From the NCBI GenBank assembly GCA_965238175.1, contig CBDEGZ010000003.1, positions 192,001 to 256,000 of the forward strand: 64,000 bases of DNA, written 5' to 3'. The notes under the pieces were generated by a model, which ran no database searches, had not been told where the DNA came from, and worked only from the letters and a program-made list of their open reading frames with translations. How positions within the stretch are numbered: the first letter of the stretch is position 1; every line of letters begins with the position of its first letter. Positions 58,662-64,000 of this stretch are shown piece by piece. The DNA comes from Gammaproteobacteria bacterium. Its GTDB lineage: Bacteria > Pseudomonadota > Gammaproteobacteria > CAJXQU01. The position numbers and the translations under genes are program-made.

Positions 58662-59792
58662 ATGAACACACACACGGACTTTGATATTCATGGGATCGTA
58701 GGGGTTCAAGTACAAGACGCTACAACCAAGGATATTTTGATGGTGGGGCGACAACTAGGACTTGTAGAAAAGCAACTTGAACGACCTGCGGATATTATAA
58801 TTCGCTTCGTAGATAAGTTAAAAACCCCAGAATCAATGCGCTATCTTGATCTGGGTGATATAGCGTTTACTGATGATTCTTTTTATGTACTTAAAGGGAA
58901 ACATAAATCACGTACAAAGGTAAAAATTCCATTTCAAGATATAGGTTCGCAATGCGAAATTGTTTGTGAGCGAGGTCTTGCGGCTGTTCCGCATCTAATC
59001 GATATTATTAATACGGTGGCACTGGGTAATGGTTTCCTGCCATTACATGCTTCCGCTTTTAATTATGATGGTGTTGGAGTAGTAGTAACGGGCTGGTCAA
59101 AGGGCGGTAAAACAGAAACGTTACTTGCTTTTATGGCTGAAGGAGCGGAGTACGTGGGAGATGAGTGGGTATATATCAGTCGAGATGGAGCGCTAATGGC
59201 AGGTATTCCAATACCTATTCGTGTATGGGATTGGCATCTAGATGATTTACCAAACTATCGGAAAATACTTGGTCGTCGTGATCGATACCGGCTTCGGGTT
59301 CTAAAAACATTTGTTCGGATTACTGAGAAAATTAGCGAAGGTAAGATTGGGAAAGGATACCTGTCAAAACTCATGAATCGAGTTGCACCTCTACTCAAAA
59401 AGCAGATGTATGTAAATTGGTCTCCTGGGAAGGTTTTTCATAATACGAAATTTTTGATGAAAGGGAGGCCAGATAAGCTCTTTTTTGTAGGCAACCACAT
59501 ATCGTCAGATGTTGTGGTCTCACCGATGGATCCAAGCGAGATTGCAAAGCGAATTTACTTCTCGATACAAGAGGAACGTGATGACTTTATTGCTATCTAT
59601 CAACAATATCGTTTCGCATTTCCTGAACAACCTAATGAACTAATAGATCAGTCCAGCCAAATACAGCAAGAACTATTGAACACAGCACTTTCTGGTAAAG
59701 AATCTTATTCGGTTTTTCACCCATACCCCGCACCTGTTTCGAAATTGTTTGAAGTAATCTCTCCATTATGCAAGCCCATCACTGAGGTTTAG
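58662..59792 (+). CDS. HprK-related P-loop kinase
   Basis: PLHASA...GVVVTGWSKGGKT...YVGDEW, the HprK/PEPCK-like pattern. Confidence 0.7.
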   Translation: MNTHTDFDIHGIVGVQVQDATTKDILMVGRQLGLVEKQLERPADIIIRFVDKLKTPESMRYLDLGDIAFTDDSFYVLKGKHKSRTKVKIPFQDIGSQCEIVCERGLAAVPHLIDIINTVALGNGFLPLHASAFNYDGVGVVVTGWSKGGKTETLLAFMAEGAEYVGDEWVYISRDGALMAGIPIPIRVWDWHLDDLPNYRKILGRRDRYRLRVLKTFVRITEKISEGKIGKGYLSKLMNRVAPLLKKQMYVNWSPGKVFHNTKFLMKGRPDKLFFVGNHISSDVVVSPMDPSEIAKRIYFSIQEERDDFIAIYQQYRFAFPEQPNELIDQSSQIQQELLNTALSGKESYSVFHPYPAPVSKLFEVISPLCKPITEV

Positions 59793-59862: not shown

Positions 59863-61254
59863 TTATTCATAATAGATATAATTGCTATCTTGATCATCTT
59901 CAGCCGGCTCATAAGATTTAAGGATCTGTACACACGCTCCAGCCAAAGCAAGGAATAACCAAAAGTATCTCTGGTATGAAAGGTGGAGAAATATCGCAGT
60001 GCTTAAGTAGCCAAGAATGCTAAAAATGAAAGCGGTAGCCAGGTGAGCCAATTCTGGTTCGAACAATGACCATCGGTAACGAACGACTAACAACTGATAG
60101 ATCATAAAAAAGATGATTCCCATAAATACAAAAAATCCAAAAATACCAGTTTCAGCAGCTAATTCAGGATAGAGTGAATGGGCTCGCCTATTCGTATTCA
60201 GTTGCCTCAAGGCAATCGTTGGGTCGTTCATATACTCTACGGAATAAAACAGACTGTAATGGTGCGGGCCAACACCAAGGATGGGATGATCGAGAAAAGC
60301 TTTGCTCGCTGCCATCATTTCTGTCAAACGCCCTCTGGTAACCGCATCAGGTTTATGTTGTGTAGTGTCAGAGACAAGCCCCTCGACACCGAAAATGGTT
60401 TGCATTCTGACAAAGTAGCCTGGAGATACAACGGCAATCAATAATAAAATAACCAGCAAACCACTTAGTAGATGCCTTATTTTAATATATTTAAAGATCG
60501 TTAGAATTAAAGTGAGTAGCAGCATTGAAACAAAAGCACCGCGGGAATAGGTGAGTAATATGCCGCTTAAAATCAAGCCAACAGATCCGGCCGCAAGGAT
60601 CTTTTTAGGCCGTTGAAAACGTATTTGGCAAAATATAAAAATGGCTAGTGGTAACAACAGAAGCATATTCTGAGCATATCTGTTTGGATCACCTATAGGG
60701 CCCGTTGCACGATTGGAACCTCGAACTTTTGTCCGTTGTTTAAGAACAGCACCTTGTTGAAGATTAGGATCTACGCCATCCCAGTTCTCTATTTTTCTCT
60801 GCGCTAACCCTCCAAACTGCACATCATAGGCTCCTGTAGATTCCTGAAAAACAGACATGGAGCCTAAAATGGTGCCGGCGATCATAAGCACCCAGATCAC
60901 GCGTTTCAAAGTATCTAGGTTGCGGACTACGTTTATTATTAAGAAATACAACATGATGCCTTCTAGAAAGTATTCACCGACCCACTGGAAACCAACAATA
61001 GGCTCTTTGGAAAGCAGGGAAGACACTATGCAGATGGTCAGAAAAACAAACATTAGTCCCAACACACGATCAAAAATAATTTTTTCGTGGCGGATAAAAA
61101 TATAAAAACTAAATGGCAGCAGTAGCAGAAGAGCAAAAGAACTAGCGATAACCGGAGGGACGCCATGAAGCGATTTTGCTATAGCTCCAATATTAGTGAA
61201 AAGAATAAATAAAGCAGTCCAAGTAGCGACTTCGAGTTCTTTTGTTGCTGTCAT
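59863..61254 (-). CDS. O-antigen ligase / Wzy polymerase family protein
   Basis: Multi-TM; RATGPIGDPN, TYSRGA, HPILGVG, AHSLY.ELAAETG. Confidence 0.85.
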   Translation of the reverse strand: MTATKELEVATWTALFILFTNIGAIAKSLHGVPPVIASSFALLLLLPFSFYIFIRHEKIIFDRVLGLMFVFLTICIVSSLLSKEPIVGFQWVGEYFLEGIMLYFLIINVVRNLDTLKRVIWVLMIAGTILGSMSVFQESTGAYDVQFGGLAQRKIENWDGVDPNLQQGAVLKQRTKVRGSNRATGPIGDPNRYAQNMLLLLPLAIFIFCQIRFQRPKKILAAGSVGLILSGILLTYSRGAFVSMLLLTLILTIFKYIKIRHLLSGLLVILLLIAVVSPGYFVRMQTIFGVEGLVSDTTQHKPDAVTRGRLTEMMAASKAFLDHPILGVGPHHYSLFYSVEYMNDPTIALRQLNTNRRAHSLYPELAAETGIFGFFVFMGIIFFMIYQLLVVRYRWSLFEPELAHLATAFIFSILGYLSTAIFLHLSYQRYFWLFLALAGACVQILKSYEPAEDDQDSNYIYYE

Positions 61255-61945
61255 TTCATTAAGTTATCCATGGTTTTCGACTTGCTGCTACTAAATTTGT
61301 GGGAAATAACCGGTAAGTTCATGATAATTATATCAGTCATTTGCCTATATCTTCCTTACCACTTGGTCACTATGTAATATGAACTAAAAAAACTACATTC
61401 AATTATCGGAATTTAAAGTTAAGGTAATTAAAAGAACTTGCCATGTCAGGTTCAACGATATTGTAGATTAACTTGTGATCCTGAACGGTAAGTTATGTCA
61501 AAGAATAATAAAAATGTGTGGGTTTCTTGCAAAAAATAGTTAACCATTAGATCTTATATTGTTTATTGAGTTATATTCCATATAGATAGCTAGTTTGGGA
61601 TATAGGATCCATTTTGCATTTTGCTTGGAATGATATGGAACTGGCCGATATAAATATCACAAATAAGTGACAAGTGTAGTCCGTTTCATTAGAATAAAAA
61701 CGGTATGGAAATTCAGAGAGTTAGAGTTATATTCTGAAAAAGTCTCATAAGATTCAACCGCATAGAAATAAGTGCAAGGAGCCATATCTATTCTACAATA
61801 TTAACCAATAGCTCCTTCGTTAAAACTTAAGACAGCGCAATGGATGTTGTTTTTCTTTTGGAGAATATTTGTTTTAGCAAGTAAAACTTAAGAGTTTCAT
61901 TACAAGTTGATGAGATTAAATTAAGAATAAAAACAAGAGGTTATC

Positions 61946-63013
61946 ATGAAAAAAACTATTTTTGTAATAATGATGGTCATCTTCAATGCCAGTTGTACTG
62001 GTATGAAAATGGTTGAGTCTTTACCTGACGTGGAAGGTGTCACAATACAGCCAATATCTGCGGAATTAATCAATAATTTAGCCTCTGATCAACAATCGGA
62101 AGTGAGGAAGTTGTCTTCGAATCTGGGTTCATTAAATGATGGAAATTACGACTACCGAGTCGGGCCTCAGGATGTTTTGAATATTACGGTATGGGATCAT
62201 CCTGAATTGACGATACCTCAAGGTCAGTTCCGTAATCCAGATGTTGCCGGGAATCTTGTCTTTGAAGACGGGACAATTTACTTTCCATATGTGGGATATC
62301 TCCAAGTAGCTGGAAAGACGATGCCACAAATTCAAGGAATGCTAGTTAAAGGCTTAGATGACACCATCCAAGATCCACAAGTTTCTGTCACTGTCGCCAA
62401 CTATCGCAACCAGAGAGCATATGTTGTAGGTGAAGTTAATACGCCTGGGCCTAAAGCAATCACTGATGTGCCATTAACAGTCGTAGAAGCGGTAGGTCAA
62501 GCTGGAGATGCAACTTCGGATGCAGATTTAACAGATGTGAAGCTGACCCGTGATGGAATCGTCTACAAAATTGATATGTTAGGGATATACCAAGACGGAG
62601 ATCTCAATCAAAATGTATTACTCAAACATGGTGATGTATTACATATACCGAACCAAAGTGAACGTAAAGTTTTTGTTGTAGGGGAAACGTCCAAGCAAAT
62701 TTCATTGCTTATTGATCAGAATCGACGGACAACGACATTGACTGAAGCAATAAGTGATGCCGGCGGTGTCGATCAGATCACTTCTAATCCAGGGCGTATT
62801 TTTGTATTGCGTGGTACAGATAATCCCGAAGAAAAATTAATTTACCATATTAATGCAAAGTCACCGGATGCCTTGATATTAGCAAATCATTTTCAGATAT
62901 GGCCCCGTGATGTGATTTATGTAGGAACAGCAGGTATCACGCGTTGGAACCGAGTTATTTCCCAATTGTTTCCATCATCGGTATCAAGCGTCATACGTAC
63001 AGTCGATAAATAG
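61946..63013 (+). CDS. wza: Polysaccharide export lipoprotein
   Basis: Lipobox NASC; YRVGPQDVLNITVWDHPEL, C-terminal RWNRVISQLFP helix. Confidence 0.93.
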   Translation: MKKTIFVIMMVIFNASCTGMKMVESLPDVEGVTIQPISAELINNLASDQQSEVRKLSSNLGSLNDGNYDYRVGPQDVLNITVWDHPELTIPQGQFRNPDVAGNLVFEDGTIYFPYVGYLQVAGKTMPQIQGMLVKGLDDTIQDPQVSVTVANYRNQRAYVVGEVNTPGPKAITDVPLTVVEAVGQAGDATSDADLTDVKLTRDGIVYKIDMLGIYQDGDLNQNVLLKHGDVLHIPNQSERKVFVVGETSKQISLLIDQNRRTTTLTEAISDAGGVDQITSNPGRIFVLRGTDNPEEKLIYHINAKSPDALILANHFQIWPRDVIYVGTAGITRWNRVISQLFPSSVSSVIRTVDK

Positions 63014-63153
63014 AAGTTAACTGATTAGTGGGTCCTTTGAAGATTAAAGAACCCATAGTGTTCTCCGTTATGACAAACAAAGAATTACTGATATAAGGAT
63101 CTTATTTTTATACTACAACAGTCTGCTACAGACAAGTTAATGCCGAAAAAATT

Positions 63154-64000
63154 ATGAACGATACAGCGAAAAAAAGGGAAGAAGAAATTGAGAATGGACA
63201 GGGAAGTCGCAAGAAGAGGTATTCTTGGGCATCTAAAATTAAAGCTGTTAAACAAGTTCTAGGCGGTCGGCCCATGGATGAAGTTGCAAGTGAATATGGA
63301 GTGCGTCCTAAAACGATAAGCAAGTGGTGTCGAAACTGGAAGAAAGAATTTGCAAAGAACGTAGTAGATGATCATAGCAAAGTAGATAGCCCTAAAGATT
63401 CGCTTGTAACTCGTGCTGTTGAGCATTGGAATGATTCAGCTGATGATTTAATTGTTGATGCAATAGGTAAAAACTTAAATGCAACACATAGGATTGATAA
63501 TTCACCTCCAAGACATTCGACAGAAATAACGAACACATCATCACATCATGAAAGAAGAACCATAAAAAATAGTGAGGATATCTACAAGCAGCAACTAAAT
63601 GTTCAACAATTCTCAAAAAATCAATCAAGTAGGAGGATAATTGAACCACAAACCGCATTCTCAGGCCAGGCATCCCTTAGAGAAGTCTTGGGAATACTAC
63701 AGGAATCTAAGTGGTTTATTAGCCGGATCGTTCTACTTACGGCACTTCTGGGAATATTACATCTTTGGTTTGTACCGCCTATTTACCGAGCAGATGCAAT
63801 ACTGGAAATTGAAGAAAATGTTCGTGGCACAGGTGCCGTCCTTGATAATTCTAACGATCTGAATGAGGAAGGTGCCATTGTTAGTGAGGAAGTCGAGATC
63901 CTTAAATCCAGAGCAGTTGTTCGTGAAGTTGTTAATAATCTTAAATTAGATTTCATTATGAGTCCAAAATACTTCCCGGTTATCGGGGAGGCAATCGCGC
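63154..64000 (+). CDS. wzc: Wzc-like polysaccharide co-polymerase with N-terminal HTH extension (partial, runs off the window)
   Basis: Stop-free frame from ATG 63154 to the window end. It contains SLREVLGILQESKWFI-TM-PPIYRADAILEIE...EEVEILKSRAVV..VVNNLKL....PKYFPVIGEAIA, typical of the Wzc N-terminus, and follows wza. Confidence 0.85.
   Translation, partial: MNDTAKKREEEIENGQGSRKKRYSWASKIKAVKQVLGGRPMDEVASEYGVRPKTISKWCRNWKKEFAKNVVDDHSKVDSPKDSLVTRAVEHWNDSADDLIVDAIGKNLNATHRIDNSPPRHSTEITNTSSHHERRTIKNSEDIYKQQLNVQQFSKNQSSRRIIEPQTAFSGQASLREVLGILQESKWFISRIVLLTALLGILHLWFVPPIYRADAILEIEENVRGTGAVLDNSNDLNEEGAIVSEEVEILKSRAVVREVVNNLKLDFIMSPKYFPVIGEAIA

Follow-up and report, generated by a model that had tools for sequence, protein, structure and literature searches.

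Wzc-type kinases are thought to set capsule/EPS output only post-translationally or via soluble substrates. Wzc normally has only a short cytoplasmic stretch before its first transmembrane helix (TM1), and the topology of the family puts the region ahead of TM1 in the cytoplasm, where the kinase ring is too; wzb is usually found between wza and wzc. In ToxR, CadC and TcpP, a cytoplasmic DNA-binding domain is followed by a linker, a transmembrane helix and a periplasmic domain. The OrfA proteins of IS3-family elements combine a helix-turn-helix (HTH) with a leucine zipper and act as regulators or as the N-terminal part of transposases such as IS911. The gene described here encodes a Wzc-type protein that begins with an OrfA-type HTH (HTH-Wzc), and it resembles each of these systems in part.

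The gene lies at the end of the window (the whole stretch of 64,000 nucleotides that was analysed, C3:192001-256000), in a MAG of an uncultured gammaproteobacterium (G000). A first-pass annotation, made from the letters of the window, had reported an ORF running open to the window end and encoding an HTH, then about 110 polar residues, then an ordinary Wzc N-terminus. All of these were recovered, with an ATG start and 282 residues within the window (Table 1). Extension along the contig, suggested at that stage as a way to find the C-terminal kinase, gave an ORF of 934 codons (C3:255154-257958, equivalent to L002:5155-7959) that encodes 934 aa and ends at window-equivalent position 65958; 1,958 nt of it fall beyond the window end. 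The kinase was found there, and Pfam analysis of the 934-aa protein shows Wzz at residues 174-263, WZC_N at 329-419, GNVR at 584-664 and AAA_31 at 753-900. There are two hydrophobic segments, TM1 and a second at residues 639-663 (TM2). The kinase has a P-loop GK[S] at about residues 748-756, Walker A' at 774 and Walker B at 854, and 6 of the last 20 residues are Tyr. With TIGR01007, the NCBIfam model for the tyrosine autokinase domain, the protein reaches 171 bits (cut-off 108). Judged by its domain set, the stretch from about residue 174 to 934 is a complete Wzc-type co-polymerase/tyrosine autokinase. The equivalog models for E. coli Wzc/Etk match it strongly yet score far under their cut-offs (527 vs 1068), so HTH-Wzc is best regarded as a member of the family and not an orthologue.

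Table 1. Features of the HTH-Wzc locus in window coordinates; residue numbers refer to HTH-Wzc.
Feature	Position	Strand	Remarks
wza, outer-membrane polysaccharide export lipoprotein	61946..63013	+	Pfam Poly_export, SLBB_2, Wza_C
wza-wzc intergenic gap, 140 nt	63014..63153	+	stem-loop at about 63029-63055
HTH-Wzc gene, first 282 codons	63154..64000	+	ORF open up to window end, ATG start
IS3-OrfA-type helix-turn-helix domain, residues 19-74	63208..63375	+	Pfam HTH_Tnp_1 and HTH_28 above cut-off
Alternative start M41	63274..63276	+	anti-SD duplex -6.4 kcal/mol; would remove HTH helix 1
Polar low-confidence linker, residues 75-185 (~110 residues)	63376..63708	+	pLDDT 48-55
In-frame TTG, codon 179	63688..63690	+	weak SD, -2.9; only start skipping whole N-terminal region
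TM1, about residues 186-211	63709..63786	+	Kyte-Doolittle scan; inside Pfam Wzz 174-263

The gene directly upstream is wza, with which the HTH-Wzc gene is probably co-transcribed. A promoter scan placed promoter-like sites near wza only at 61667-61733 and found none in the wza-wzc gap. The hairpin that had been noticed in this gap is present in the minimum-energy fold (-28.6 kcal/mol, z -2.29); it is without a U-run, a terminator scan does not call one, and the palindrome occurs once in the genome. The last ~19 nt ahead of the ATG of M1 are A-rich and unpaired in the predicted fold. When 61200-63200 was scanned for repeats that could form an operator, short two-copy families of no note were obtained and no DNA target motif. 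As had also been reported, wzb is absent between wza and wzc; the island holds no LMW phosphatase gene, and two are found elsewhere on the chromosome.

Several other features of the surroundings were recorded. The wzy/wza/wzc core is flanked, on opposite strands, by two paralogous genes (L002:663-1793, window 58662-59792, and L002:10430-11572, beyond the window), whose products of 376 and 380 aa have a P-loop-like motif and zero Pfam matches at E<=0.001. Past the EPS genes come ppa and a membrane pyrophosphatase gene and then, ~3 kb beyond the end of the EPS genes, an IS481-type transposase gene (HTH_29, rve; L002:16882-17916), which could be the border of an island. The genome includes two small contigs, C1 (10,967 bp, 55.8% GC) and C2 (8,481 bp, 43.9% GC), the chromosome being at 40.4% GC; C1 may be foreign to the host organism.

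The head of the protein is recognised as an HTH by two Pfam families. HTH_Tnp_1 (PF01527) matches residues 19-63 with 31.4 bits in the window fragment and 29.5 bits in the full protein (cut-off 24.1), and HTH_28 matches with 26.7 bits (cut-off 25), in agreement with the HTH that had been read from residues ~19-62; those residues are as the first-pass annotation quoted them. The NCBIfam N-terminal models of IS3 and IS481 transposases match the head weakly. Residues 17-75 carry a net charge of +9. AlphaFold2, run on an alignment of 8 rows, predicted helices at residues 25-36, 41-48 and 52-74 and a three-helix bundle over residues 21-70 at pLDDT 93-96. No PDB entry reached E<=0.001 in a Foldseek search with this model; the highest-ranking rows were small HTH domains, including 2elh, the IS-encoded TnpE (2rn7) and TraR, and a sequence search of the PDB gave a single weak match, again 2elh, at E 0.031. 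The linker that follows is 71% polar or disorder-promoting residues, and its low pLDDT is interrupted by a predicted helix at 129-158 (pLDDT 70-83). AlphaFold2 also placed a helix at 84-110 at pLDDT about 50; here the alignment with OrfA zippers is gappy, with no evident leucine zipper.

A fusion of this kind could arise as an artefact, either because the true start of Wzc is TTG179 or because the junction is a mis-join in the MAG. It is the case that both the genome and the contig that matches it are metagenomic in origin, and that the Shine-Dalgarno (SD) sequence at M1 is weak or absent: the anti-SD pairing of M1, which sits in the unpaired A-rich leader, is -0.2 kcal/mol; of the starts of long ORFs in the host, only 41% attain -4 kcal/mol. 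The only in-frame starts ahead of TM1 are M1, M41, GTG50 and TTG179. Against an artefact, there are 175 in-frame codons without a stop in a genome of 40% GC, and their usage is coding-like. With a codon model derived from 1,288 long ORFs in the host genome, the frame-0 log-odds were 0.42 for codons 1-18 (the best score within the gene), 0.11 for codons 19-64, 0.32 for codons 65-114 and 0.02 for codons 115-175, with a gene-wide mean of 0.26 (sd 0.11) and negative values in all five other frames; the score for residues 115-175 is low, at 0.017 near the 1st percentile of genes. No stop interrupts the first 40 codons, and GC3 is host-like (0.37 vs a genome mean of 0.34). A separately assembled Logan contig of 20.5 kb (run X1), which probably stems from the same sample as the MAG, is identical across 62900-64000 with 0 gaps.

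The internal start that had been put forward as a way to undo the fusion does not hold up. The AGGAGG at 63631 reads as two Arg codons in frame, and no start codon lies at a working distance from it; the next in-frame start, the TTG at 63688, is 51 nt away. This TTG aligns to an internal Leu in 3/3 of the closest Wzc relatives, and homology to the translated tails of these relatives is visible in the alignment from about residue 141. Since the ~35 residues that precede TTG179 are homologous to tails that are translated, translation begins upstream of it. Nor is there, in the MAG or in the matching contig, a stop or frameshift between the HTH and the Wzc part, the other event that had been considered. 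The HTH, the linker and Wzc form one uninterrupted gene, a real fusion, and an artefact of either kind is highly improbable.

The nearest relatives of the Wzc part show which features of HTH-Wzc are shared and which are its own. The closest three among the matches listed are metagenomic Wzc proteins of 872-886 aa that are 61-62% identical over residues 176-934; their N-terminal tails, 120-135 residues long, are acidic and rich in serine, and none of the three has an HTH. A homologue from another family (G021; 892 aa, 45% identical) is encoded directly after wza and has a 140-residue tail rich in Arg, Pro and Glu, likewise without an HTH. The first-pass annotation had set the long N-terminal stretch and the missing wzb against what is usual for Wzc, but both are common to the nearest HTH-less relatives, and so a long tail in the cytoplasm and a wza gene next to wzc appear to be traits of the clade. 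What stands is the HTH itself: among the matches listed, a Pfam HTH was found in HTH-Wzc only and in 0/119 other Wzc homologues. Comparison of these proteins indicates that the HTH is a lineage-specific addition, with the junction between about residues 88 and 140. In six sister genomes, no orthologue of HTH-Wzc was found, the best match being 28% identical in the C-terminal part. As an aside, the closest Wzc relative (P0049) has a perfect tandem 10-residue repeat at residues ~35-56 of its acidic tail, which shows slippage at work in the evolution of such tails.

The relatives of the head are found among transposable elements. When residues 1-110 were compared with 400 genomes of the same class, 29 matched at E<=0.01, and beyond the head itself the matches fall in open reading frames 76-393 aa long that are often present many times in a genome; identity is 25-42% over about residues 17-85. 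Examples among them are OrfA genes followed by OrfB genes with an rve domain, that is, IS3-family elements. The host genome has no second copy of the head. The single copy, and the Wzc domains that follow it, point to a derived domain rather than a transposase. The suggestion that it is a domesticated transposase HTH therefore agrees with the matches, which are to multi-copy IS3 OrfA genes elsewhere and to nothing else in its own genome.

Larger databases gave no second protein of this architecture. A word search of 5.8 billion proteins with residues 1-175 (lengths 513-1635) returned only HTH-Wzc itself. With the same residues, phmmer found 47 hits at E<=0.001 among 1.84 billion representatives (best 1.7e-17), of which the 24 longer or better ones were scanned with Pfam; none of these had Wzz/Wzc, and most were tandem multi-HTH proteins. 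Many of the phmmer hits are built of 4-12 transposase-type HTH domains in tandem, over 200-4,200 aa, and these outrank the single-HTH relatives. The ESM Atlas, searched with residues 1-300, returned only Wzz clusters (scores 0.84-0.85), and in full-text literature outside subscription journals no HTH fused to Wzc, PCP or BY-kinase was found.

These results bear on a second explanation, in which an IS3-like insertion followed by a deletion left the 5' part of an OrfA gene in frame with wzc as a neutral relic, the head being functionless. Whether the head is made in full or the protein begins at M41, Wzc would then work just as it does in the relatives that have only a disordered tail. HTH-Wzc is a singleton, with no other protein found that carries this head on Wzc, and long tails without an HTH are seen in the three closest listed relatives and in the G021 homologue. 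An SD is present at M41 and none at M1, and the repeat scans found no target motif. On the other hand, no trace of the rest of an IS is left: OrfB is missing, and the head occurs just once in the genome. The host-like composition and codon usage make a very recent event less likely. In the model none of the three helices is disrupted, at the high pLDDT given above, and the first 40 codons remain open and include the best-scoring codons of the gene. The neutral relic is rather unlikely, and it has also to be set against the similar fusion that appears to be under purifying selection in sister genomes.

This parallel fusion occurs in four of the six sister genomes (G003-G006), all of which are MAGs of uncultured Gammaproteobacteria. 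It was first seen in G005 (832-837 aa), with orthologues in G004, G006 and G003, and is a different PCP/BY-kinase, of 821-837 aa across the four, whose N-terminus is an IS3-OrfA-type HTH. The copy in G003 is split over two contigs and G001 has a fragment; the protein was not found in G000 or G002. It has Wzz, GNVR, a P-loop kinase and a Tyr-rich end, its gene lies directly after a wza-like gene, and SD-like motifs are present ahead of its starts. It forms three clusters within the set of 5.8 billion proteins, and no paper on it was found in full-text literature outside subscription journals. The gene is part of a conserved block of three, in which it follows genes for an outer-membrane-type protein of 419-439 aa and a wza-like export protein of 185-200 aa (L038:4996-9422 in G005; also L036 in G004, L037 in G006, and L042 and L046 in G003). 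G000 retains a flanking gene for a small membrane protein (C3:1253357), and the first gene of the block was not found there.

Pfam misses the sister head. A search of 300 genomes with this head gave matches to multi-copy OrfA genes in 11 others (E 7e-7 to 7e-3); of three such OrfA kin that were scanned, two pass the PF01527 cut-off, and one downstream OrfB that was scanned carries rve. Its alignment has invariant Tyr, Lys, Cys, Leu, Glu and Trp positions, and AlphaFold2 predicted helices at 34-46, 50-60 and 64-76 (pLDDT 85-90) and a disordered linker up to TM1. Between species, the head is 59-69% identical (dN 0.22-0.37, dS saturated) and the core domains are 50-77% identical, while the linker is 9-31% identical (dN 0.6-1.7). 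By these measures the sister head appears to be as conserved as the core of the protein, and the linker does not. The first-pass annotation had been aware of no described example of such a fusion; this stands for the exact HTH-Wzc fusion, which was not found elsewhere, but the combination of an OrfA HTH with a PCP/BY-kinase is conserved in the sister genomes.

The two heads are only distantly related. Compared one-to-one, they give a BLASTP E of 0.42 and an hhalign probability of 0.3%, whereas profiles of the two, each built with its own IS kin, align at 94% probability (E 1e-7). A tree was built from 18 rows, which had been chosen for their similarity to each query (128 columns, two rows on long branches); in it, a branch with 98/97 support groups the sister heads with six OrfA kin, apart from the window head and its kin, and a single clade for the five fusion heads was rejected (AU p=0.0056). 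The window head and the sister head thus appear to have been independently acquired, and because they derive from different OrfA lineages the same solution would have arisen twice.

Our main reading, held at a probability of about 0.4, is that the window head is a DNA-binding or regulatory head on Wzc, derived from an IS3 OrfA. A DNA-binding role is suggested by the intact and basic fold and by the conservation of the parallel fusion. An IS3-like element would have inserted in the part of wzc that encodes the 5' tail, with the remainder of the element lost later, and HTH-Wzc would be translated from M1. The head would be cytoplasmic, as the topology of the Wzc family implies and as the first-pass annotation had proposed, and it would be held near the membrane on a flexible linker, much as in ToxR and CadC; multiplied by the oligomerisation of Wzc, it would bind DNA, most likely within the EPS locus that encodes it. 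Transcription could in this way respond to whether the export machine is assembled or phosphorylated. The singleton status of the fusion, and the lack of an SD at M1, of a target motif and of a Foldseek match, count against the DNA-binding reading, as do the MAG origin of the genome, the probable origin of the matching contig in the same sample and the low codon score at residues 115-175. Overall, what the first-pass annotation observed at this locus has been confirmed, and the interpretation it gave is in part supported.

The head may instead be a putative protein module for the kinase, whether as a substrate of Tyr phosphorylation, a docking site or an aid to oligomerisation, that tunes the cycling of Wzc. 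Tyr residues are present at positions 23 and 48, within the HTH, and at position 144 further along the N-terminal region, and by the topology of Wzc the head and the kinase ring share one side of the membrane. The island is without wzb, with LMW phosphatases encoded elsewhere in the genome. There is also a precedent, in that a BY-kinase was reportedly found (by Derouiche, in 2013) to phosphorylate a Tyr in the HTH of a regulator. Nevertheless, a basic tri-helical HTH from a DNA-binding family is more simply a DNA binder, and a role as a protein module is improbable.

A broader version of the DNA-binding reading takes in both fusions. It is conceivable, although somewhat doubtful, that in one uncultured gammaproteobacterial genus the export kinases have twice recruited OrfA heads, as oligomeric membrane-tethered DNA binders that control or hold their own gene cluster. 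If true, these proteins would form an undescribed class of membrane-tethered DNA binders, in which the state of tyrosine phosphorylation is perhaps involved, and would provide a direct wire from the assembly of an envelope polymer to gene expression. They would also provide a clear bacterial example in which a housekeeping membrane protein has taken in, and domesticated, the DNA-binding domain of a transposase.

In comparison with known systems, HTH-Wzc is most like Wzc/Etk, the PCP-2a BY-kinases, with which it shares Wzz and TM1, WZC_N, GNVR and TM2, the P-loop kinase, the Tyr cluster and an adjoining wza; unlike these, it has ~175 added cytoplasmic residues before TM1, including the HTH, and a locus without wzb. 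Its head is like the OrfA of IS3-family elements such as IS911 in matching HTH_Tnp_1, but it precedes a membrane protein, only Wzc domains follow it, and OrfB/DDE domain, second copy and inverted repeats are all absent. The sister HTH-PCP/BY-kinase has the same order of an OrfA-type three-helix head, a disordered linker, TM1, Wzz, GNVR and a P-loop kinase; it differs in having no WZC_N, in being 25% identical to HTH-Wzc over the C-terminal third only, and in being kept in four genomes where HTH-Wzc is a singleton. With ToxR, CadC and TcpP, HTH-Wzc has in common a cytoplasmic N-terminal putative DNA-binding domain, a flexible linker, a transmembrane helix and a periplasmic domain. The likeness to ToxR is in topology only: these regulators bind DNA through an OmpR-type winged helix, for which HTH-Wzc has no Pfam match, while its own head is a tri-helical HTH of the transposase type, and where they have a periplasmic sensor, HTH-Wzc has a co-polymerase, a second transmembrane helix and a kinase.
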